Positions 46,827 through 63,597 of a stretch of 64,000 nt of DNA are shown here, piece after piece. Below the pieces are notes generated by a model that saw nothing but the letters and a program-made list of their open reading frames with translations, was not told the origin of the DNA and did no database searches. The DNA comes from Curvularia clavata. Its lineage: Eukaryota. A program made the translations under genes and the position numbers. The stretch spans positions 1,426,001 through 1,490,000 of the forward strand of contig CP089274.1 in NCBI GenBank assembly GCA_023920165.1, in the 5' to 3' direction. Position 1 is the stretch's first letter; every line of letters begins with the position of its first letter.

Positions 46827-47736
46827 TCACACCCTTTCCTCCTTATTCGCAGCTTTTTGAGCATACTTGAGCCGAAGTGGATGATCTTTCAGAACTCGAA
46901 TCATCATGTATCCTAGAAAATCTGAGTTGAAGAAAGTCCATGAAGGCCAGTCATTCCAGTTGCCACACCAGACCATTAGATGGACGGTTACATCCGCTAA
47001 GATCTTCTCCAAGGGATCGCCGAATTCGATACTTTCGAAGGTAGCCAGCAGACATTCATTGTCAATATGTAGCTTACTGAATGCTGTTTCAACAGCCGCT
47101 TCCATGATTGTGTCGTAGAATTTTTCATCCTGGATGTCGGCCCCAAGTTGGAGAGTCCGGAGGACAGACGAAAACCAGGTTTTGCCTTCGTTATCTTGTT
47201 CTTTCAAACTTTGCGTATGAGTGATACAACCTTTGTAAAGCCACTCGTAATATTTCCCAAAATCTTTTGGGTTTATTTCGAGGAATTCCTTGCATTGACT
47301 TAGTCTGCGATCACTCCATTCGTGACGGCACAGCGGACAAGATACTGGGTGTCCAGCTGCTTGACGTTTTAGGTTTTCGATACAGTCAAAATGAAAGTTT
47401 TTCCCACAAAGTTTGCAGAATGTGAGCTCTTGAAGACCGCGCTCTAGATTCACGAGACAGATGGAGCAATCTCCTGCGATATCTTTTCTCTCAGGCTGAA
47501 GCTCTTGGCGGAAGAACAATGAATTGGCGCAAAGGAGATCTTCGTGTACGACGAACATTTTTGGATGAAGACCTATGAGAAGTCGCGCAATACTCCGACC
47601 ATGGCTTTTTTACAGTCAGTATCATCTGTCATTCTCAAATCGCAATAGAATGGGTTTATGCCTGGGGTCGTGCAGAGCCATATCCATTTAACAGCATGCG
47701 CTAATCTGGAACTTACTTGACGGGTACTGAATTCAT
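46827..47736 (-). CDS. BTB/POZ-like protein with an inserted RING finger (copy 1)
   Basis: ARLLIG..FVVHEDLLCANSLFF - CSIC..CKLCGKNFHFDC..CPLCR - INPKDFGKYYEWLYKG..LQLGADIQDEKFYDTIM; intron ~47605-47716. Confidence 0.75.
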
Positions 47737-48416: not shown

Positions 48417-49433
48417 TTAATCCCCATCGGTGTCCATCTCAGATTCTGACGCAGTGGATTCCCCATCTTCAGTCTCTGTCTGATATTCATACTCTCCTTC
48501 GGTATGTTTCTCCAGCAAATTCTTGTGCTTCACACTTTCCTTGGACCGAGCCGAAGCAGCAACACACAACTTGCGTACAAATTGAAAGGGCAACGCTTCA
48601 TTGCGGCCGCATTGGATGTGATCCAGGTAGTTGCCCATCAACCATACGTCGACTAGGAAATCTTCCATACAAGGTGGGCCATGCTTTCCAGCATACTTGA
48701 TACAGGCTGGGTCGAAACCTCCTTTGGCGCCCTTCTCGATAGCGGTAACACATTCAGCGATGATAGCTTTTTTGAAATTTTCGTCCTCGATTTTGACTGA
48801 AAACCTCCAGGTCCTGAGTAACTCAAGGTTGTAGCTACTTTCTTGGCGATTGAAGGCTTCGTCAATGTGCAGTTCTCCTGTGTATAGCCAATTCACGTAT
48901 GCATGTATTGCATATAGATCCAGGTTCCCAAGATCCAATGGCAAACCAATGTTCCTTGACCTGGTTTTCCAAGATTCGCGGCACAAAGGACATGTCGTTT
49001 CGCGTACAGTTAATCTCTTCCACTCGTCGATACAATGCTTATGAAAATTCTGTCCGCAACGGGCTTCACAAAATGTCAACACACTGGTCTTGGGGTCCAG
49101 CTTCTCTTTGCAAATCGCACAGTCGCCGTCGATGATCTTGCGGTTGTTCTGCAGACGCCGCTTGAAGTATTTGGAGTTGTTGCAGAATAGGTCTGCGTGA
49201 ACAGTGAAGTACTGATTACTGTATCGCGTGTGAAACGTGATGACATTTCGGCCTAGACTGTAAGAACTCAGTATAAGCGACGCGAAGCCTTCGAATGCCC
49301 TAGCTACCAAACAGGACTCAGCCTTTTAGTCACACCGCGCCGTTTGATGACACCCATTTTCGCAAGTAGTGATTGAGGCTATTGCGATGGCGTTAGTATA
49401 TCAATGTACGTTGCAAAGCGGACATACTAGCAT
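48417..49433 (-). CDS. BTB/POZ-like protein with an inserted RING finger (copy 2)
   Basis: FTVHADLFCNNSKYFK - CAIC..CEARCGQNFHKHC..CPLCR - LDLYAIHAYVNWLYTG..FSVKIEDENFKKAII. The 5' exons (ATG 49433 or 49357) are tentative. Confidence 0.75.
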
Positions 49434-50273: not shown

Positions 50274-51470
50274 TCAAACACCAATGTACCAAAGCTCGAC
50301 ACCCAGAACGCCAAACTTCTTGCCCTCGTCGCTGAGTGGCTCGTTGCCAAATGTTGGACATGTATCCGACACACCGTGTTCGAGATTGTCATCTAGCCAT
50401 AGGCCATAATGGCCGTCCCTGTGATAATATGAGTATGATTATGGCTGGTGCGTGATTGGATGGCTTACCCTGCACCAACGCTTAAATAGCTGTGCTCGCA
50501 GAAGATCATGAAATCGTTCACTCCGCTATAAGGAAATGCCTTGAATCGTATCCTCTCTGGTGTGCTCGCGCCACTCCTGTTTGTCTGAGGATTCTCTGGC
50601 AGGGCTAAATTGTCGCTCTTTGTTTTTGGAGATGATATGGTTGTCATTCGCACGGCGTTTGTGGTATCCTCGGAGGGTGGAGGTGGAAGGTTTAGTTGTA
50701 AGTCTGGAAGTCCGGCAAGAACGTGCGCGCGCCAGAGGAAGCATTCGCCGTTGCCGTAAAATGACGGAGAAGGATGAGGTGCCTCGGAGAGATAGGCTCC
50801 AAATAACTGTCATAAAATATCAGCACTGCTTTGTGACTATTGATGTCGGGGAACGTACTCCTCCATCACCATCTTTAACGACCAGCACGAAACCACCTCT
50901 CCGCCCCCGGTATTCACCAGCCTCTTTGTAAAGAGTCGCCAAGCTTACACCGTTCTGTTCTAGACTATATGCTAGGCTCCATTCGTCCACCAGTTGTAGC
51001 CTCGGTGGCAGAAGCAGCCTGATCTCTTCTGCCAGCGCTTTAGTCAAAAGCTTGCCCTTCTCGCGCATTCCAGTCCTCCATCCCTTCAGACTCAGTGGTG
51101 TCAACGGTGGTGGCTGAAACGGGCTCGCTGTGCGGTGTGCTGGCTGGAAGACTGAATTCATATCCGTGGAATTGGACGACACGATGCTTGCAAGGGATTG
51201 CGAGAGCGAAGAAGCGGTGGAGTGCAGCTGTGCCTGCAGGTTGCCTATGCTGTTGCGGTTGCTGCTGCTGCTATCCGACTTGGCTTTTGCCTCTGAAGTC
51301 GGACTCGATTCAGTGTTCAATCGTCGTAGTATGCCTGAGACGGCATATGAGACGGGATACGTGAAATACGAGGACGAGCGGTTGGGTGTGGCGCGTTCTG
51401 GTGGCGGCGATGTCTGCGAGGATGGGGAGCGAAAGGGTGGAGACGACGGGGCTTCGTGTGCGTGCGACAT
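50274..51470 (-). CDS. OXR1: Oxidation resistance protein Oxr1 (TLDc domain)
   Basis: LAEEIRLLLPPRLQL..W.LAYSLEQNGVSLATLY, HFYGNGECFLW, FKAFPYSGVNDFMIFCE..LSVGAG and YGLWLDD..CPTFGNEPLS; two introns. Confidence 0.93.
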
Positions 51471-52128
51471 GACTGGAAATTGGCAGCAATGATTGCCAGT
51501 GTGCCTGGATTAATGTGGGTCGAGTGTTGGAGTGATGCGCTGGGGTGGGCGCAGGTCAAAGCAACTGTGACGTTGGCTGAAATTAGTGGGCTGACAGCTG
51601 TTTGGAGCCTCACAACTTATGCAAGGCGTGTGCGCGTTACATAAGCATGGTCTTGCTGTGGGCTGATGCATTCTGGGAGCTACAGTGGGAGCCAGCGATA
51701 TTAAGCTACGAAACGGTGATGCATGCTGAATGGTTGCTCGCCTCTTTGGCTCCTTGATGTGTAGCCGTCAGAAGGCGCTAGTACCGAGGTGGAAACTTGG
51801 TTCCCGCTACCCGGTAAGGCTGATTTTGCGCCATCGACGACAACTCCGGGGGGCAGACGGCGCACAGGGCCGTTGGCTGGAATTGGATAAGCGCACCATC
51901 ACCAAACGGCCATGGTTCAGTGGAATGGCACTTATCGATTTCCGATTAGGATTCTAGTATAAAGGACTAACAATGTTGCCCTGCTTGTGGTCACTTGCAT
52001 TGCAATCGCCCTACTTTTGCCTAAAGACATGATATGTAGCTTGCAACTTTTTTTTAAAAAGGATATGCAATCACAACTTCATCGACATGATACGCCATAG
52101 CAGGTGATTTTAGCCTGTAAACGCCCCC

Positions 52129-53325
52129 TCATGTAGCTTTGACGGTCTCTGTGGTGGCCTCCTCGTTCCCTGTCTCTACTTCTTCCGCTACATCCGGAAG
52201 CTCGTGATCCTCATGCTCTTCTCCCCCTTCACCAGCCGCAGTTTCATTCTCTCCGTTTTCGGTGTCACTCTTCAACTTGGCACCTTTTCTCTCTGGCATA
52301 ACAGCCATGAAAGCCTTGCCCCAATCTCCAAACTCCATCCACTTGAGCATGATCTCCAGTACGTGATTCGTGACCAGGACCTGCCGACTCTTCATTTCGA
52401 GATATTGGCCAATGGGCAACTTTGCCGTTTTGATGCCGCGGCTGACAGCTCGCTTGTGGCAGATGCCTTTGTGCCGATTCTTGTCCACTAGGCCCCCAAT
52501 GATGTAGGTACTATTAGGTTTCAGGTGTGTGAGGACTTCGTCGGACTCGGATGAGAGATACACAATCTCCCCTTCCTCTGCCTCTTCAGTGTTTTCCTGT
52601 TCACCTGCCGCAGTGGCCTCTAGAGGAGACTTCAGTGCACCCGCCACCTCTCCTCCATCTGGTCCGGTCATCCACTCTTTGGCTTTTTCTGCCACCTCCA
52701 CAAAGTCTTCCTCGAAAAATCGGAACCCTTTCCAGCTCGTATACTGTTTCGCCAGAATGCCATCAAAACGTTCTTTCATCTTGCCACCAAAGCTGCTAAG
52801 TGCCAAGTGTGCCCGAAATTCTGCCTTTCGGTTATCACTGTAACATCTTGTGATCTGCAATCCTAAGCTTTTGAGTTCATTGTCGAACATGAGCTCCTCA
52901 AAATCGCAGTCGAAAATTACTGTGATGGGCACTTGCTTTCCATGACCTGCTGAATGTCTAGGTAGACGTGGAGGTAACAGTCTTGGTTTGTTTCCATTTT
53001 CGTCCACTGGCATTTGCGCCAATGCCTCCCGGCGCCGCTCTTTCTTCTCCTTGACCTTCTCTTTTCGCTTTAATTTACGATCTTCACGTCCTGCTTCCCA
53101 GCGTTCATGTCGCCTTTGCTTCTTGAGTTGGTTCTTCGATAACTTTGGTTCTCCACTTTCGTTCTCAACAGATATTGTAGTTGGGGCTTCAGCATTACCA
53201 GCTACTTCTTCATTCTCGGCGCTATTGGACGTTTCTTCAATGGGTGCAGGTACATCCGTCACAGCTTTGTCCTCCTCGCCAGACTCCAATTTACGAATCT
53301 TTGCAGGCCTCTCTTCCGGGTCCAT
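52129..53325 (-). CDS. TRM10: tRNA (guanine-9-N1)-methyltransferase Trm10
   Basis: IFDCDFEELM..LGLQITRCYSDNR, IVYLSSES, YIIGGLVDKNRHKG, AKLPIG.Y and VLVTNHV.EIM. Confidence 0.95.
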   Translation of the reverse strand: MDPEERPAKIRKLESGEEDKAVTDVPAPIEETSNSAENEEVAGNAEAPTTISVENESGEPKLSKNQLKKQRRHERWEAGREDRKLKRKEKVKEKKERRREALAQMPVDENGNKPRLLPPRLPRHSAGHGKQVPITVIFDCDFEELMFDNELKSLGLQITRCYSDNRKAEFRAHLALSSFGGKMKERFDGILAKQYTSWKGFRFFEEDFVEVAEKAKEWMTGPDGGEVAGALKSPLEATAAGEQENTEEAEEGEIVYLSSESDEVLTHLKPNSTYIIGGLVDKNRHKGICHKRAVSRGIKTAKLPIGQYLEMKSRQVLVTNHVLEIMLKWMEFGDWGKAFMAVMPERKGAKLKSDTENGENETAAGEGGEEHEDHELPDVAEEVETGNEEATTETVKAT

Positions 53326-53532
53326 CTTCTCTGTGAGTTTGATTTTGATTATCGTTGAAAATGCGTTGTAAAGGTTTCCACCCACTCAGCGTTAACAAAA
53401 TTATGCTCACGTCTTAGCGTGCCAAGCCATACCCCGGTCACCACAGCGTCCTGAGCTCGAACCTCAACTTGACGTCTCCGCATTCACGATACCCGTCAAA
53501 CACCAATTGAACCACGAATACGATCGCCCATC

Positions 53533-54018
53533 ATGCCGCAGGATATGCCGCCACAGGGCGGCTACAGCCCCGTCCAGTACAAGCGCAACCTGCCTGTTCG
53601 AGGCTTCCGCCCCGCCGCATACATCATCGGGACTGCGGCACTCATGACATACGGATTCTGGAGGGTTGGACAGGGCATCAGGGAGCACAAGTACGCAAAA
53701 CCTGCCTGAAAATATGGCGATGTGATTGCATGGCTTTATCGGAGATGCTGACGTCTCATAGCGAACTCGCGCGCGAGAAGATGTGGGCGCGGATACACCT
53801 CATTCCAGCACTGCAAGCAGAGGAAGACCGCGACCAGGTTCGAAGGTATCTAGCAGACAAGGCTAGAGAGAAGGAATTGCTGGGAACAGAGACCAAGATT
53901 TACAACAGCGACAGGTATGTTGATCATAGTCATGGCACCTTAATCATTTGGCTAATTACGCGGATACAGATTTGTTCGACCTACTTTCGCTATCACACCC
54001 GAGCACGAGACGAAGTAG
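53533..54018 (+). CDS. NDUFA13: Complex I subunit NDUFA13 / GRIM-19 (B16.6)
   Basis: MPQDMPPQGGYSPVQYKRNLPVRGF..ELAREKMWARIHLIPALQAEEDRD..YNSDRFVRPTF; two introns. Confidence 0.95.
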
Positions 54019-54502
54019 AAGCTGGGTTGGAGTTGTATATATAAAATTGAAATGATTGCTGTCTGGCGGGCTTCACACCCAACGTCTCGTGAGAAGTAGG
54101 CTGGAAGACGCGTTCTTCTGCGTAATGATTCAAAATTTCGACACAGACGACATGCGAACATAGGATGTTCCGGATCGTGGAGATTCAGTCTCTCGAGATA
54201 CATCAATACAGGCCATCAGTGGCTACGATAGTGATGCTGATCGTGGACAGATTTGTGATGGGCTTGCATATTTGGCTCACATAGGTTACATTTCCTTGGT
54301 TTTTCTCTCTCCAAACCATGTTTGGCCCATTTCCTTTCCATTGTGTCGCGCGACCTCGAACAAGTGATGCGATCTACCCTTCGATCTGCTCGTCTATCTC
54401 ACCCTCTGTCTCAATATACCAGTCCCCGAATTCCCTTACTTCTCGTCTTCCACCTTTACTATATTATGCAACCAATCAATTTCCTCTCAGTATCACACAA
54501 CC

Positions 54503-55316: not shown

Positions 55317-56173
55317 GAGCTGAAGTTAGAAATTACACGATTGGTGTTGATTTCGGGTTGAAAAACGACTGCGTTGTCTAAGATTTGCACTGAGAGGAGG
55401 TTGTCATATTTTGATCCTGGATTGAATCAAAATCAGTCTCATGGATGCGGTTGAGAGTGATAAGGGTGAAGAAAGTTACACTTACCCCGAAGGCGTATTA
55501 TCAGGCATTAGATGTGGAACCAGAAATGAGTAGCTTTGAATTTATATTTAACACTGGCTCTTTATGGAAAACTGAGAATATACAGAGTAGCAGCAGCGCT
55601 AATTACACGAATGTCTTATTTGAACCTTTTCTGCATAGGGGTCGTGTGAACAATCTATTGAGTCGATCATGGAGGAGAAGCCTATAGCAGGTGGGTGATG
55701 ATTCAAGACTGATACAGATAGCGGGAAATCAAGTTGCATGCCCAAATGTGAATTGGGCTCTTCATCTTTGTAACTCAAGTTACCTTTCTATAGTGGTTTG
55801 GATTATTTCAAGTAGCATTTTAGAATCTTATGTCTAAGAGGTAATTCGGCAATTACCTCGTATTATTCATTTCGCGTGGTTTGTAGTAATTCTTACAGAG
55901 CACTTGCAATCAACGAAGAGAATATAAAGAACATCTTGTGACGGCGCGGGCAGCAAAAGCAGCAAAAGGAAACAAAAAAAGCCAAATGTTGTGGTTCGAG
56001 ATGGATTGCTAGGAGAGCGAGGGCTCGGACTGAGTACAGTAGTCTCGCCGAGGTGCTTTGAGTAAATGGGTAAAGGCCTGGCCGTCGAGAAACTTTTTTT
56101 GATCAGAGCCTAATACCTTTGCCTTTTTGTTCTCTGATACGACATCTCTGATATTGTCTACTTTTTTTCATCT

Positions 56174-59100
56174 CTACAGAGGCCAACGTATAGGAATTCT
56201 TTCGGATGCATAGATACTCCATCTTTCCCGATGTGCCGCCCGGAGTCTTCGCCTTGCAACAAGTTCTGTTGCACACTTTAGAAGACGCTCTTCGTTACTA
56301 GGTTTTGATGCCCAATTGTCGAATGCGGTATGAATCTTTTCTAAAGTTGCCTCACCAAGCCCCGATCTTCTTCTCGTGGTGCCGCTTGATTTCCATTCTC
56401 TCTGTCCTACATTGAGGCCTTTTCTGTCATTGAAGTCACTAAATCGCCAGTAATTATCAGGTGATGGCGTTTTCGCTGAAGGTTCTGTTTTCTTTTGTTC
56501 CTGGAAAATGTGCACAAGACCCTTCTGTGATCTCCTTAGCGTATCTAGTTCCGGCTCAATTCCTATACTGACGATCATTCCGATCCCTTCTTTTCCATGC
56601 AACGATTCGAGTTCTTTGCGACCTAGGGATGACAGGTGAAGAGCGGACATGTTGCCAGCATCTGATACATAGTTCATTTCTGGCTGGTCGAGGAACAAAC
56701 TCTTACAGGCTATTAGCTTAGGAGTTACGGATGAGGCTGTAGCAGCTTCCATGGCTTCTGAGACTTTCAGCCAAGTAGCTAGACGAAGTTTTGTCGGGGT
56801 GGGGTCCCGCTCGCGATCTTCTGGGATAGAAATAGAACTATCATAAGATCGAATAAGGTACGGTTTTGTCTCCTGTATACCCCTTTTGGTTTTAACGGAT
56901 GCGGCAATAAACCTAGATGTCTATAAGTCACCGGGGAGAATATGAGCAGGATTCGATCTTACTAACAGAGAGCATGTGCCAGGTGAGGTATGCACAAGGT
57001 CTTCCTCGGCAGTCAGATTTCTCAATATTGTAATTGCTCTGCTTATTTCCCAGGTCGTGTCTACCGGTTGTAACGATAAACTTTGAGTCAATGTTAAAAA
57101 AGATGTTCGTTTACCGAAAGTGCCCCGGAGAACCTCCTCGTACAAGATCTTACAAGATGTCACGTCTATCCGATACTGGCCCAGCATCAAAGCTATGAAG
57201 CTGAGTTGTGTCAGTGATACGTATACGCAAAACTTCGTTTTCTCTGACCTACCCTCCCATGCTTGCACTGCAGATCAGATCAAAATAATGACAAGGCAGA
57301 TGGCGCTCTGTGCCTTCCAACTCCCTTTCGTAAGTGGCAGATGAACTCGCTAGGAGGCCAGCGACCCATGAGCGCTGTGCTAACAGTGACTGTTCCTTTT
57401 CCTCTTGTTTTATCACATCCATTAGTTTCTCCAGTACCAAGAGCGACCAGTATATATGGGTTCCATTTCCACCTCAACCGAATGTTAGTTCAAATGTCAC
57501 TATATTCTGTAATATAATTGGAGAGAAGGACTTACCCAAAGACAACAGATTTCGTTGTCTCCAGGCCTCCTCGGTCTCCTGTGTGAGAATACCCTGCATA
57601 TGTGCGGTACGTCTGGCGAGAAAATCGTAATTGGGACCCGCAGAAATATCTGAGAAGAATCTTCTTCGTCCAGCCTTACTCTTAGAGCTAGCTTCAATCT
57701 GAGCATCAGTGTATTGGCCTTGATTAGCATACACAAAGTCCGTGCTTTCTCTAGAAACAGACGGTTCTCGATGAAAAGTTTCCCTGAGACTCCGGTCAAC
57801 CTGTGCAAGTCCAAGGTCAGCCATTTCAGGGCCATTGTTCTCTATTAAAATCCGTAGAGTGGATCGTTGTTTCTGAAGAGCAAAATCGTCCTCTTCGTAG
57901 AGTTCTAATGTATCTTCAATAAGCCTACGCAAGTCTGAAGGGACAGGTTGTTTGGGTTGTTTGACATGATATACCGTGGCTTGTAACTCATTCATGTAAT
58001 CCTCCTGAGTCTTGATGTCTTGTCTTTTTATAAGGCCTAAAACTGATGCAAAGCTTTGTGTGAAGCTTACGTGCGTGGACGTATCGGGTTTTCGTCTCCA
58101 AACTTTGTTCAAACGCAAAGCGCAGCAAACTTCCTCAAATGGTTCGGTTGAGGAGTCTGAGAGCATTCCTTGAAGTAGCTCTTGTGCCTCGTCATACTTT
58201 CTGAGTGCAATATAAGCATCTGCTTTGGCAATGGAGACATAAGCATGGTTGGTTCCAGTCTCTTGCATAAAAGCCGCAGTTAGAACCAAGGCTGTTTGTG
58301 CCTGACCCAACAGAGTTAAGATTTTTACAAGCTCAGCGAAGAGCAGACCATAGACGTGAGAATGCTTTTCAATAGTATCCAAAGTTAGGTTCAAATCCAG
58401 GAGATTGGATGCCGTTTCCAAGTGACCAGAACAGCGGAGACCGACCGCCAGTGCATATACGAGCTGAGAGGGTATACGAGAAATCAGATCAGGCACGTCA
58501 ATCTCCATTGGATGGATGAGGGCGTAAGCGACCTCCTCTAAAGATGTTGTTCGGGACGGGAGATTAGCGTTCCACCACGAACGCCAGCTTTCGTAACACT
58601 TCCACGAACCTGGAATTGAAGACTTCCAAGTTATTTGAAAGAGTGTAAACCCGGCAAGGGAGACGTAGAGTGAATCATGGGGCAAGTTGAACTCTCCAGG
58701 GTCCCGTAACTTCCGAGTATGCAGCTCAGAGCTTGGAATGTTCAACAAATTGCTCATTTCTTTGTGAATCTCGAAAAATGATTTGAAGTCTGATGATTTG
58801 ATGGTGCCGAATAAGAGAGGCCAGTGCGTGTCATCTAGCACAAAGCCAAGGTTTGTTAGATGGAAGACAAGTAAACCGTATCTCTTCTCCGTCACAAGGT
58901 TTGGATCGAAACAACTTGAGCCAGAAAACGCTAAGAGAAAAGGTATCAGAGTGGTACGGACAATGTCCTTGCATACGAACGAAGTCATTTCCCAAAGCGG
59001 TTCTGTATATGGCGTTGGAAGGGAGAGTATGGTCAAGAGGCAGAGGATCATCTGTGCCTCTCGGTACTTCTCAGGTTCTGATGAAAAAATACCCCAAATG

Positions 59101-59462
59101 TGTTGCCGAACCTGTGCTGAAAGCTCGAGAAAGGTCACTTTCTCTTGGTATGTGACGATGAGGTGCATTTCGCGCCGCAATAGTTCCAACTCAGGTCCGA
59201 GTTCAATCGCACCATATTGGAAATCGTAGATAGAGGTCTTCAACTGGAATGTTTCCGGTTTGTCGTGTGTTTCGCCGGCCCTTCGGAACAACCGAGGGAA
59301 TTTCTCGAGTTCAGGGTAATTAAGCCCGGCATTTGGAACAATCGAAAAAGGTCTTGTGAATATCAATGCAGGAATCGATCGACTGGGGCTGCTGGCGAGG
59401 AGAAGTAGAAGCTTGTATGCAGTATCGTCAATGGACAACCCAAGACTCTGGAACGAAGACAT
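56174..59462 (-). CDS. Winged-helix-like/TPR protein with a C-terminal degenerate patatin-like phospholipase domain
   Basis: Exon 1 (59462-57536) has AYKLLLLLASSPSRSIPALIF and TPR-like helices (KADAYIALRKYDEAQELL). Introns 57473-57535, 57201-57252 and ~56913-56965 join NLLSL-GGNG..SLLVLEKLM..LPCHYFDLICSASMGGFIALMLG..PYLIRSYD..EAMEAATAS..YVSDAG..IVSIG in one frame. Confidence 0.75.
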
Positions 59463-60020
59463 GGACGGTGCGATCCGGATAGAACTTTATCTGAGATCGG
59501 AGACAAAAAGGGTAACGCAGTTCAGTGAAGGCAAGGCCTGGGCTGCAAGATAAATGAGCAAAGGCAAGGCTTTAGTGGCATGGCCATCGCGCAATACTAA
59601 GATAGGCCAGCATTATGTATTCCAAGCTACCCTTTGGCCTGTGAAGGGCCGTTCATTCTGCCAATATAATAGCCCAAATGTCTACAGGATGCCAGGGTAT
59701 GCAGGAGTTATCCTCATGCGCTTGTTTTCTACAAGGGGTTCCCTGCTCAGTTACGTTATCATCCAGTCGCCTGCGACCATGCTCTCGACAGCGTGCGCAA
59801 TGCCGCAAGGCTGAGGAGCTGATGAATGACTCCAAGATCTGGGTTTCAGCTGAGTACTGAGCTAACATCGGAGGCTTCTACTGTGCAATTTCATTCGCTG
59901 GAACATTGACACGATATGCGAGGCTTGCATATTGATAAAACCACCCAAGTAAGCTGAACTGATGACATCGCCCACCCGTGTCCACGGAGATAAGTATGCG
60001 ATTCCTAAAAATAACAGGGG

Positions 60021-63000
60021 ATGTCACAGACTGGAACAAAACTGGTGGAGAGAGTACCCCCTCCCATCCTCCGAACTATCCACCGCGAATCTGTTAATAT
60101 GAAGAAAAGCAACAAGACTGTGCGACTGACGGGTATTCTCGATAGCGAAACGAGGGAAAGAATCGAGGCTCAGGCGTTAGCAGACTCGAAAGTCCAACTT
60201 CCAAAGTGGAAGAAATTCTTCAAGTCTTCGTCCCACAGGTCCGGCCGTGATACTGATACCGCCAGTGGGTTAATAGGTACAAGTTTAGCACAGCAAAGAA
60301 ACCTTAGTACTGCAACTATCACTTTCGCGACCTCATCAGCGAAAGACAGGGCTTTGGATGGTTGGCAAAAAAGAGGTAACAAAACAAGCACAGGTCCATA
60401 CATAGATGACGACTTCCGAGGAATCACCATTCTACACAGTGGCTCCACTGAACAAAGAGTGGACTTGGAGTACGTTACTCATCCTCTTTACTGCAGAAGG
60501 ACAACACTGACCGTGTTACAGCATCTGCGCTGTTCACGGCTTGAACGGCCATGCATTTGACACTTGGATGAGTAGAACCCAAATGTGGCTGCGAGACTAT
60601 CTACCCAACCACACCGAATTCAGAAACAGCAGGATCATGACCTACGGTTACGATTCACAGCTGCTCAACGGCAAGGGAACACAGTCGCGTTTTGAGGACT
60701 TTGCCGATCAGCTTTTAGTACTCATCGGGCAGGAGAGGACCACTCCCGAGGAACATGCGCGGCCAGTCCTGTTTCTATGCCATTCTATGGGTGGGCTCAT
60801 TGCTCGTCTCGCCATGGTGCGGTACGAAAAATATACCCAACTCCATCCAGGAGTTGTGCTCGGGCCTAGAGGCCTATTACTTTTGAGCACTCCAAATTTG
60901 GGATCATTGATGGCTCAATGGTCTGATCTGGAACTGGAACTAGCCAGTGTGTTCGGTGTTCGGACGAGTCTTATTAAAGAATTGAAAGTTCTTAACCCAC
61001 GACATATCGACGCTGTGAATGACTGGGCTACGCTTCAATACCCACCCTTGATCCGCTGCTATTGCGAATCCTCGCCAACATCATTTCCAGGAGGGAAGAA
61101 ACAAGTAAGAGGTGGATTTATTTATTTTTTGTACTGACTACGTGAGTTAACGCTGTCTAGGTCGTCACCGCGGCTTCTGCTGGTTTTCTTGAACACACAG
61201 CCATGCTACTCCCGGAGACGGACCACCACTCTGTCTGCAAGTTCGAGAGACACACCAGTTCTGCACTGACTATAGTTATGGGGGGTTTGTGCGACATGCG
61301 AGCAGAGCTTATGAGCAGGGCCAATCAACTTATGTCGACAGCAGTAAATGTATAGTCATCAATTTTCAGTAATAAATTCTGTTTTTTGGGAAGCTACTTC
61401 AAAGGATACAATGTATGGCTATCTGACGTATATCAGGTAAGAAGAATCGGCAGGCCGGAAGCTACAGCCCCAACATATCCGCTTCCTACGCCGTTTGTCT
61501 TCGACCATGGATTCCGTAAACCGAGTTGCAACGCGGTGAAACGATGGCAGCTTCTCGATGAAGCTACTAGGAACATCTATAATTCTGTCCCGTCACGGCA
61601 TATGCTGATATTGATTGGTGTTGCAGGTTCAGGGTATGTGCGATGAAGTGCTACACGATTGTATTCCTAAGACTGATGAACTGTAGAAAAACGGAGCTTC
61701 TTCTAGACATTTCGAGGACAGGAGGCAACTTTATTATCTTGTCTGCATCAAATTATGCTGCCTTACGAACGAAGCTCGAAGAGTATGCCCTTATGTACGG
61801 TCACGATACTATACGTCATGGAGCCATTGACCCTCGATCCCTTGATATTTGGAAAACATATACACCGAAAGTTCAGGCAGACAGTTTCTTGAACTGGGCA
61901 GCAAGAAAGGAGAATGACTGTGTCATTGTTCTGGATGAGCTCGACAACATCAAAGACGCCTCAGATATCGCGCGAGACTTACCGCAAACCGCTCGTGTAG
62001 TAGTCTCCACAAGAAACCCTATAGTATCAAAGCAGCTTGCCCGCTCCGGTTTCCAGTGCCTGGATCTATTGGTATCTGACATGGAACCGGAGGAGGCGGA
62101 ACAGTTGTTCCGATCTTTAATAGCATCCACTGTAACGGTTTCTCCAGACCAGCTGAGTCGATTAGTCGAAGGCCTAGATCGACACCCTTTTGCCATATGT
62201 GCAGCCTCCTCATATCTACCTGACCTCCAGCGCATCCAAGATCCCTCTGAACAAGATCGCGCAGTCGAGGTCCTTCTAAATGCCCTAGAAGGCGATGATT
62301 TTCAAGGCAGGAGAGACTTTTTCGATTTTGATGGCTTACTAGACCTATCCATTTCAAAGCTATTCGGAACCGCAATGACGCACTTGAAGAACCATACTAC
62401 GAACATGGATTATTTCACTGCAGTACGCCCACTCTTGCAAGCGGTAGCGCACCTCTCCGATAACAAAAGTGGGTGTCATTTCGCAACATTCTTCAATGCC
62501 GTGCAACCAATTGCGACCAAGAAAGCAATACACGAAATCGACAATGTTTTCAAGAGGGGTTTGAGGCAAGAAAACAGCACATTAGGGAAGATCCTACAGT
62601 CCTCGCTGATTGTCGAACGTTCATGCACGCCGTACATGCCTGCGCTATGGCGAGACTGCATCATGCTTTACGAAAGCCATCGCCCGAAAGAAGTAACATA
62701 CTGGCTTAAACAGATCCTCTTACTATGCTACCTGTACTACGAAGAGAACAAAACTAAACCCAACAGTACAAAGCTGTACCCATTCGTCAGGAACTGCAAA
62801 CGTATAGCGAAAAGATACGGCATCAGCTTCGCCAACATCATTACATGTCCCGAGCAAAACTCATGGCACGATCAAATTGTGCAGCTCGACAACGCGTCAG
62901 TGCATTTCTCGACCTTGTTAGCGGAATGCCGCGAGGTAAAGAAAAGTGCTTCTGCGGAGCGCCCAGGATCAGATTACAACATCGCATACGCTCGACTGAC

Positions 63001-63217
63001 GAGGCAGTATAAATTCTGGAGAAAAAGGTATCCAGCTTACGGCAGCGATTCCGCCACAGGCGAGACTGTGAGAGAAATAAAGAAGATTCTTAAGGGAGCT
63101 GCGGAATCTGTAGGGAATCCAGTATGGAACCCGGATTGGGTTGCGTCGGCGGCAGAGTCGGACAGGGTAGGGGGGAGGCAAGAGATAGAAGAAACTAAGT
63201 ATGACGACTACGAATAA
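60021..63217 (+). CDS. NLR-like protein: SesB-type alpha/beta-hydrolase + NB-ARC-type P-loop NTPase + helical domain
   Basis: DDDFRGITILH, DICAVHGLNGHAFDTW, MWLRDYLP, RIMTYGYDS, FLCHSMGGL, TDHHSVCKF; Walker A GVAGSG|KTEL, Walker B VIVLDELD, VVVSTRN and LDRHPFAI. Introns ~60470-60521, 61104-61160, ~61350-61436 and ~61634-61686. Confidence 0.85.
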
Positions 63218-63597
63218 GATAGAACGTGCCAATGGAGAATAAAGAAGACTCACACTCATAGCCAGAATTAAAACGGAAATTTTCGCGAGATCATATGCAA
63301 AAGACAAAACCCGACATGTTCGAGGGATATGATCAACATCCATGCTCATGTCACTTAAAGCAAGCAAAGCATGAACAGCATTTCCGAAATTTCTAAAATT
63401 GAAATGAAGTATCCGCAATGGAGCACAGTACATGACTAGCCTTCCAGCTATGCTAACCTCGTGTTCGCTACTCAGGTTACTGCCATGTTTTTGCTCCATG
63501 AACTACCCTTCGCCATCCGCAGCACGAGATTTGTAGCATGCCCGAAACGGTGTCTGACAGCAAGCCATTCATCCTCGAACTTGTGCCTCCCCTTGAT

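Follow-up and report, generated by a model that had tools for sequence, protein, structure and literature searches.

A divergent gene pair in Curvularia clavata with a NOD ATPase and a TPR-like solenoid on separate chains: a candidate two-gene NLR-type module of Pleosporales

Fungal NOD-like receptors (NLRs; NOD, nucleotide-binding oligomerization domain) are described as single-chain proteins in which an effector domain, the NOD and a repeat domain are combined. SesB-like hydrolases and patatins are recognised effector domains associated with NLR-dependent cell death in fungi (PMC4986451, PMC9815663, PMC12881547), and the known two-gene systems work either through amyloid motifs, as in NWD2/HET-S and PNT1/HELLP/SBP, or through a guarded protein encoded by a linked gene, as in PLP-1/SEC-9 (PMC9815663, PMC12881547). 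The locus analyzed here, at positions 56174..63217 of a 64-kb window of Curvularia clavata DNA (the window is the whole stretch that was analyzed, and all positions below are window coordinates), consists of two divergently oriented genes with complementary content: the plus-strand gene encodes a NOD without repeats, whereas the minus-strand gene encodes a TPR-like solenoid without a P-loop. The reading favored here, for which the arguments are about evenly balanced, is that the locus is a functional, co-inherited, divergent two-gene NLR-type module of Pleosporales.

The plus protein resembles the sesB-like/NB-ARC/TPR NLRs, such as Pa_2_10340 of Podospora anserina (Table 4 in PMC4986451), in that a SesB-like hydrolase is followed by a NOD with Walker A and Walker B motifs. 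In contrast to these NLRs, it has no TPR array, and the TPR-like solenoid is encoded by the divergent neighbor gene; the C-terminal repeats in the same chain that characterize the canonical tripartite fungal NLR are thus missing from the plus protein. The PLP-1/SEC-9 system (het-z, vic) also combines patatin-type, NB-ARC and TPR domains, and an NLR and the product of a linked gene control cell death (PMC12881547); in that case, however, the domains belong to one chain with patatin at the N-terminus, whereas here the patatin-like domain is C-terminal on a NOD-less chain and the pair includes no SNARE. In the NLR/effector amyloid clusters, a separate death effector adjoins the NLR, and SesB-like lipases are known in such clusters (PMC9815663, PMC12881547), whereas the NLR-like plus gene of the present locus carries its own effector domain. 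Amyloid-type coupling of the two proteins was considered and rejected: the best common motif of the plus N-terminus and the minus C-terminus scores at the level of shuffled sequences (z -0.4 in the window, where 130 of 200 shuffles reach the score; 135 of 200 in Periconia). Head-to-head sensor/helper NLRs of plants show the same divergent layout around a short upstream region and divide the labor between the partners, but both plant partners are full NLRs, whereas only the plus gene of the window pair encodes a nucleotide-binding domain. Head-to-head NLR-NLR pairs appear to be rare in Sordariales, accounting for 13 of the 225 two-NLR clusters (PMC12258605). The terms 'split NLR' and 'two-component NLR' were not found in the fungal NLR literature searched, of which the supplementary tables of the NLR surveys may list such pairs.

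As proposed in an initial annotation of the window, two intact genes diverge from a region of ~560 bp. The ATGs are at 59462 (minus strand) and 60021 (plus strand), long open frames run away from each other on the two strands, and the gap of 558 bp between them (59463..60020) is the presumed shared promoter region. The minus gene (yc1106_00490, USP73216.1; 59462..56174) encodes an annotated protein of 1039 amino acids (aa), hereafter P0001, in exons 59462-57536, 57472-57253, 57200-56967 and 56912-56174, the last of which includes the stop codon (56176-56174); the three introns are 57535-57473, 57252-57201 and 56966-56913. Exon 1 matches P0001 with 100% identity, the translation of the spliced model reproduces P0001 letter for letter, and two sources label this protein 'PNPLA domain-containing'. 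The plus gene (60021..63217), as modeled, encodes 982 aa in exons 60021-60469, 60522-61104, 61161-61349, 61437-61633 and 61687-63217 (stop codon included), with four introns at 60470-60521, 61105-61160, 61350-61436 and 61634-61686.

The intron borders of both models come from the joints of contigs, adjusted to GT..AG. These contigs, from the public runs X1 and X5, were aligned to 56100-63300 and represent two studies and one organism, 95-99% identical to the window, which is a relative and not C. clavata itself; the RNA type of the runs is a guess. All seven introns are skipped by these contigs at GT..AG or CT..AC ends: a contig of 3517 nt spans the minus gene and skips 63, 52 and 54 nt with CT..AC ends, and another, of 3314 nt, spans the plus gene and skips ~52-55, 56, 87 and 53 nt with GT..AG ends. 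Therefore both genes, and not just one of the partners, are transcribed and spliced in a close relative of C. clavata. The transcripts are separate, with the spliced X1 contigs of the two genes ending at 59507 and 59953 without loose ends; the thin coverage over 59508-59952 was not counted as evidence. In run X9, a DNA-like contig runs on across 59446-59751. The initial annotation noted the lack of a Walker A motif in the minus protein, and this holds for all four proteins of the family that were inspected (0 of 4: P0001, P0014 of Periconia, P0109 of Exserohilum and the distant P0022) as well as for the six frames of 59400-60100. Accordingly, no missed upstream exon encoding an NTPase domain was found in either the protein or the intergenic frames, and the contig end near 59507, without a loose end, is a weak hint against any further upstream exon of the minus gene.

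The plus protein begins with an N-terminal region (aa 1-150) that is followed by an alpha/beta hydrolase of the SesB-like/DUF676/PGAP1-like type (aa ~151-400; both encoded by 60021..61349). In the Pfam search with exon 2, DUF676 scores 25.4 bits (cut-off 20.3) and Hydrolase_4 scores 28.3 bits (cut-off 27). The domain contains the motif CHSMGG, which we take to be the nucleophile elbow, and the motif TDHHSVCKF, presumably catalytic as well, and it is 58% identical to the corresponding domain of the Periconia macrospinosa protein P0009. With Pfam scores above the cut-offs and an elbow in place, this part of the protein classifies as a SesB-like/DUF676 hydrolase and is predicted to be lipase-like.

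The hydrolase is followed by a NOD module with the predicted succession of nucleotide-binding domain, helical domain 1, winged-helix domain (WHD) and helical domain 2 (HD2) (aa ~456-849; 61581..62815), which was delineated from motifs, an AlphaFold2 (AF2) model and VIA-align comparisons. Walker A (GVAGSGKT) is located at aa 468 (61617-61633 + 61687-61693) and Walker B (VIVLDE) at aa 552. A 53-nt intron splits the P-loop codons after GSG and before KT; the exon start KTELLL is found also in the homologues P0005 and P0006, seen at the level of open reading frames, so that the position of this intron appears to be conserved. The AF2 model of exon 5 (509 aa, alignment of 6 sequences) is of medium confidence, with a mean predicted local distance difference test score (pLDDT) of 65.6. 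In VIA-align, it matches the wheat G10 NLR (Z 9.7, 271 residues aligned), CED-4 (Z 9.4, 298 residues aligned, model positions 7-376), WRR4A (Z 9.1), NRC2 (8.6), Apaf-1 (8.3) and ZAR1 (8.2). Exon 5 alone, that is, without the exon containing the P-loop, matches no Pfam family at E <= 0.05. The plus protein is 40.5% identical to P0009 over 849 columns, and in P0009 Pfam detects NB-ARC with 35.2 bits (cut-off 23.5), with DUF676 and PGAP1 also above their cut-offs. Taken from the models, then, the plus protein has a complete CED-4/Apaf-1-like NOD that includes its own WHD and HD2.

CED-4 is itself under the control of a separate binding protein. Like the plus protein, it is a NOD protein without sensor repeats, and the comparison is made here with the CED-4/CED-9 complex (2a5y). 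The effector of the plus protein, however, is a hydrolase rather than a CARD, and the TPR/patatin-like minus protein is unrelated to Bcl-2, with any binding between the two proteins being putative.

Downstream of the NOD, the model predicts a bundle of three helices (aa ~862-948; 62852..63112) and then a low-confidence tail. The helices, at positions 389-423, 428-447 and 455-475 of the exon-5 model, match only generic three-helix bundles (Z 8-9). Neither Pfam nor the structure model of exon 5 revealed a repeat family (TPR, ANK or WD40), so that the tail is a ~90-aa three-helix bundle and not an ordinary repeat domain. A search for longer homologues of exon 5 gave no match, even with the plus gene product itself, and is uninformative with regard to fused forms. 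The description of the plus protein in the initial annotation as a SesB-like hydrolase with NB-ARC and a helical domain, and without a sensor array, is thus borne out by Pfam, the Walker motifs, the CED-4-like fold and the three-helix tail.

The N-terminal half of the minus protein is predicted with confidence: based on an alignment of 102 sequences, the AF2 model has pLDDT mostly >90 over aa 1-560 and shows a hairpin that is followed by an all-alpha solenoid. The first part, module i (aa 1-190; 58893..59462), appears winged-helix-like from AF2, alignments and neighbors in the ESM Atlas. The elements modeled at high pLDDT are helices 13-24, 33-41, 50-59 and 90-97 and strands 101-106 and 109-114, and the motifs LLLLA..S.IPA.LF.RP and P.PY.EPLWE...C..V..ST.LPFL are kept in the alignments. 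We take this motif pattern to resemble the winged-helix region that follows NB-ARC in fungal NB-ARC-TPR proteins. The nearest named clusters of the ESM Atlas carry DUF7779 (22%, 34% and 15% of the members), WHD_NWD1, HTH_77, WHD_MalT and WHD_TANC1, with scores of 0.93-0.82 and at most 144 shared features; fold searches barely covered module i. The assignment of the KLLLLLA..IP..IF segment to a post-NTPase winged helix in the initial annotation thus finds a counterpart in the AF2 helices and hairpin and in the Atlas neighbors but not in Pfam or hhalign. Three weak lines of evidence agree on a winged helix of the STAND type, which at present is a lead.

The second part of this half is a helical linker and a TPR-like solenoid (aa ~191-560; 57783..58892) that includes the motif LRLNKVWRR. 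The TPR-like helices noticed in the initial annotation form a solenoid in the AF2 model, for which VIA-align (aa 222-549, of ~190-560) gives Z 10-13.3 to TPR and PPR proteins, including Z 10.5 to the TPR domain of a P. anserina NLR (4y6w). Such Z values are usual among helical repeats and therefore demonstrate the TPR-like fold but not kinship. Among the Pfam TPR families, all of which are below the cut-offs for P0001, TPR_19 reaches 18 bits (cut-off 25), and the Atlas neighbors of the solenoid are TPR_12 clusters. Foldseek with the P0001 model returned generic TPR proteins and none of them at E <= 0.001 (best E 3.8e-3), and the best phmmer match of P0001 in the PDB sequences, at E 0.29, is not meaningful. 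By its modeled structure, the region of aa ~190-560 is assigned a TPR-type alpha-solenoid fold. It is followed by a poorly conserved linker of low confidence (aa 561-635; 57558..57782), with pLDDT <50 over 564-642 and 22% identity to P0109.

The N-terminal half of the minus protein belongs to a much larger family. A profile of four orthologues of the minus protein, searched against 1.84 billion representatives, retrieved 100 proteins with E <= 0.001; E is <= 1e-10 for 30 of these and <= 1e-30 for 11. With sub-profiles, 107 of the fetched proteins gave a match: 52 matched only module ii (aa 261-560), 33 only module i and 22 both; many of the short matches are probably exon-level fragments. Pfam domains at E <= 1e-4 were detected in nine of the 97 relatives scanned (88 had none): Pkinase in two, Ank in two, G-alpha in two (one with TPR_12), and Patatin, WD40 and the combination NB-ARC + DUF7779 + TPR_12 in one each. 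By sequence comparison, this N-terminal domain represents a modular fungal family without Pfam annotation or assigned function. It recurs in P0017, P0040, P0059, P0093, P0034, P0089, P0101 and P0091, ahead of parts of the protein kinase, G-alpha, WD40, ankyrin or NB-ARC-DUF7779-TPR type. The last of these, P0091 of Fusarium nematophilum, has modules i and ii N-terminal to NB-ARC, DUF7779 and TPR_12 in one chain (module i, hhalign Prob 86%, E 5e-6; module ii, E 2e-12). Since both modules precede the NOD in this protein, the N-terminal domain of the minus protein and NB-ARC are fused elsewhere, which constitutes a Rosetta-stone link.

A naturally split NLR can be envisaged, in which the NOD ATPase and a NOD-less winged-helix/TPR half, encoded by separate, co-inherited genes and each with an effector of the lipid-hydrolase type, assemble in trans, the latter half being a widespread portable unit. 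We consider this unlikely. The proposal of the initial annotation that each gene supplies what the other lacks is roughly right, in that NOD and TPR-like solenoid are partitioned between the two proteins; it is inexact insofar as the plus protein has its own WHD and HD2 and the minus N-terminus has no homology to the plus protein. Because the plus protein has these domains and the minus protein has a winged-helix-like part as well, the pair is not a clean split of one NLR.

The C-terminal part of the minus protein (aa ~636-1039; 56177..57557, with three introns inside) is a divergent patatin-like (PNPLA) domain with conserved C-terminal helices. The bit scores for Pfam Patatin (PF01734, cut-off 27.7) are 20.1 for P0001, 24.2 for P0109 of Exserohilum and 31.4 for the distant P0022, and there is no Patatin match in P0014 of Periconia. 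With a profile of four sequences of this region, the best match among solved structures is CapV of the CBASS (cyclic oligonucleotide-based antiphage signaling) type (8zr9_A, E 0.0048), a weak match whose alignment covers only the first two motifs (blocks LSLxGGGxRG and YFDLIxGTSxGG). The window protein has LSLGGNGTH where GGGxRG is canonical, FDLICSASMGG from aa 706 where GxSxG is canonical, and SDAGN as a candidate for DGA/G. The oxyanion-hole motif GGGxR/KG is therefore missing (GGNGTH), whereas the Periconia orthologue keeps GGGVRG; SASMG retains the Ser and loses the first Gly, and SDAGN is a candidate Asp motif in an unreliable alignment. Different patatin motifs are lost in P0014 and P0109, and the C-terminal helices (CA.ELV..RR.RA...RW..YA) stay conserved. 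P0022 (1362 aa, on an 8,229-bp contig) combines modules i and ii with a weak Abhydrolase_2-like stretch (E 0.0052) and the patatin domain, with both nucleophile elbows (GYGQGG and GTGSGG) looking altered. The patatin domain postulated in the initial annotation is, then, a real match to the extent of the CapV alignment and a weak one by the Pfam score. Judging from the sequences, this domain is patatin-derived, and its catalytic competence is doubtful and differs among the orthologues.

This pattern bears on the view that the minus protein is a pseudo-enzyme scaffold outside immunity, for example a TPR adaptor with a role in lipids or membranes that is co-regulated with the lipase-ATPase only by way of the shared promoter. 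The variation or disappearance of the catalytic motifs among orthologues would fit such a role, as would the sub-threshold Patatin scores of P0001 and P0109, the missing match in P0014 and the altered elbows in both hydrolase-like parts of P0022. Since the Ser in the middle of SASMG and a candidate DAG motif persist in the window protein, the C-terminal helices are strongly conserved and the pairing with a NOD ATPase is conserved too, this view seems to us quite improbable.

The conserved association is apparent from the homologues in other fungi, where gene adjacency was read from accessions and contig records; orientation and spacing are those of the window pair alone. The Periconia macrospinosa orthologues of the plus protein (P0009, PVH96067.1) and of the minus protein (P0014, PVH96068.1; E 2.8e-87 to the minus profile) have consecutive accessions and share a recorded contig of 92,219 bp; given the GenBank practice for consecutive accessions, the Periconia genes are likely neighbors. 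The closest homologues of the plus protein (P0005, 65% identity) and of the minus protein (P0002, 55%) both list a 40,036-bp contig from the Joint Genome Institute, and another pair of homologues, plus P0006 (43%) and minus P0010, both list a contig of 829,358 bp. Altogether, a minus homologue is found on an equally long contig for three of the five clusters of plus homologues, which are all three of the informative, long-contig cases; the remaining plus representatives (P0007 and P0008) are on contigs of 1.8-3 kb, too short for both genes, and the contigs in the P0008 cluster extend up to 52,233 bp, with no minus homologue on a contig of equal length. The ranks of identity agree for the same three partners (65/43/36-40% for plus against 55/32/31% for minus). 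Scans of metagenome contigs with P0002 and with the alignment of the minus protein found no homologous loci. Hence the homologues of the two genes appear linked rather than scattered, with consecutive accessions in Periconia and two more pairs on contigs of the same size.

Several observations weigh against a functional module and are shared, in part, with the main competing explanation, namely that the genes are functionally independent neighbors, a repeat-less SesB-like/NB-ARC protein and an unrelated TPR/patatin-like protein, held together by inherited microsynteny and perhaps by a bidirectional promoter. In the models, the NOD of the plus protein is complete by itself, with its own WHD and HD2, so that there is no structural need for a partner; moreover, fungal NOD proteins often have no annotated C-terminal domain (52% match a Pfam family; PMC4986451). 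The two proteins are not related in sequence and have no terminal motif in common: the comparison of the minus and plus alignments gives Prob 0.11, and that of module i with the plus protein Prob 0.07. Kinase, G-alpha, Ank and WD40 are among the many unrelated partners of the minus N-terminal domain, which is therefore not NB-ARC-specific. Adjacency that follows from accession order in one named species only, with two further inferred cases, could reflect inherited microsynteny or the constraint of a shared promoter. The winged-helix lead is weakened by the absence of Pfam DUF7779 from P0001 and from all 35 module-i proteins (0/35) and by the hhalign comparison of module i and the DUF7779 part of P0091 (Prob 0.4). 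The three-helix tail of the plus protein scarcely aligns in P0009 (27% coverage). The patatin motifs are eroded, with GGNGTH and SASMG in the window protein, GFDTA without the nucleophile Ser in Periconia, and GTSTG kept but no clear DG motif in P0109 of Exserohilum; pLDDT is <50 over aa 689-977 of the minus protein, where 3-4 sequences cover the alignment. In addition, the transcription data come from a relative and not from C. clavata, with the run type guessed as RNA. On the other side, each family has few close homologues, and yet three of three informative cases are paired, at identities down to 31-40%; furthermore, an NB-ARC NLR of Fusarium contains the minus-type N-terminal domain, and both proteins contain domain types of NLR effectors. 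On this balance, functional independence of the neighbors is a serious alternative, although a rather unlikely one.

Variation within the locus points to yet another possibility, that of an allorecognition (het/vic-type) or guard-type pair similar to plp-1/sec-9, in which linked, co-adapted alleles would cause NB-ARC-dependent death upon mismatch after hyphal fusion. A contig of run X9 covering 57991-58213 differs from the window at 18 of 223 letters, with 0-2 differences in the neighboring contigs, and in run X10 the pieces 58127-58321 (8/195) and 59089-59251 (10/163) differ by 4-6%, against 0-2 differences in each of the pieces 56259-56978, 59863-60467 and 62696-63027, which belong to the plus gene and the patatin-like part. 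All of these divergent patches fall in the N-terminal half of the minus gene, and the tight divergent linkage matches that in fungal systems of an NLR and its partner such as PLP-1/SEC-9 (PMC12881547). Most of the other contigs listed for the two runs differ at 0-2 letters, apart from the X10 piece 58567-58835 with 4 of 269. The patches may represent local hypervariability or distinct alleles. However, the samples, with depths of 3-9, may mix organisms, which could explain the patches equally well, and unlike SEC-9 the partner in this locus is no conserved essential protein; an allorecognition function is accordingly distinctly improbable in our estimate.

The genomic neighborhood of the pair is of the housekeeping type. 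The flanking frames between 46830 and 54041 encode a tRNA (guanine-1) methyltransferase (52132-53385, minus strand), a TLDc protein (50823-51509, minus strand), two RING-finger proteins (46830-47609 and 48420-49325, both on the minus strand) and a protein with a weak match to GRIM-19 (53511-54041, plus strand), and by tblastn neither gene has a second copy in the window. Given these flanking genes, the pair is an isolated unit and not a member of an NLR array.

Under the favored reading of a co-inherited NLR-type module, the plus protein would be a sensor-less STAND ATPase that consists of a lipase-like effector of the SesB/DUF676 type, an NB-ARC-type NOD and the three-helix tail, and the NOD-less minus protein would join an N-terminal half similar to the post-ATPase part of an NB-ARC-TPR receptor with the divergent patatin-like C-terminus. 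The TPR half of the minus protein may act in trans on the plus protein by delivering a ligand or guardee signal; alternatively, the minus protein might restrain the plus protein, as CED-9 does CED-4, or might be a recruited effector. The plus protein would then oligomerize in a nucleotide-dependent manner and gather one or two lipid-hydrolase-like domains at a membrane, with regulated cell death or defence as the possible outcome. The gene models, transcription with splicing in a close relative, the domain content and the conserved adjacency are established by the data, whereas we infer that the two proteins interact, in which direction (sensor, inhibitor or recruited effector), what triggers them and whether they act as enzymes.

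Independently of any interaction, the analysis exposes an N-terminal family, unannotated in Pfam, with 100 representatives at E <= 0.001 in patatin, kinase, G-alpha, ANK, WD40 and NB-ARC proteins. If the two genes indeed encode a split NLR, the N-terminal half of the minus protein would exemplify a family of NOD-less WHD-TPR modules, widespread among fungi and unannotated, a portable sensing or docking unit that is wired to kinases, G-alpha, patatin, ANK/WD40 and full NLRs. A conserved pair that divides the NOD and the repeats between two proteins, with a distinct lipase-type domain in each, would, if true, represent a new wiring of a fungal cell-death or immune switch and, with its two genes and one promoter region, would offer a tractable system for the control of a sensor-less NOD.

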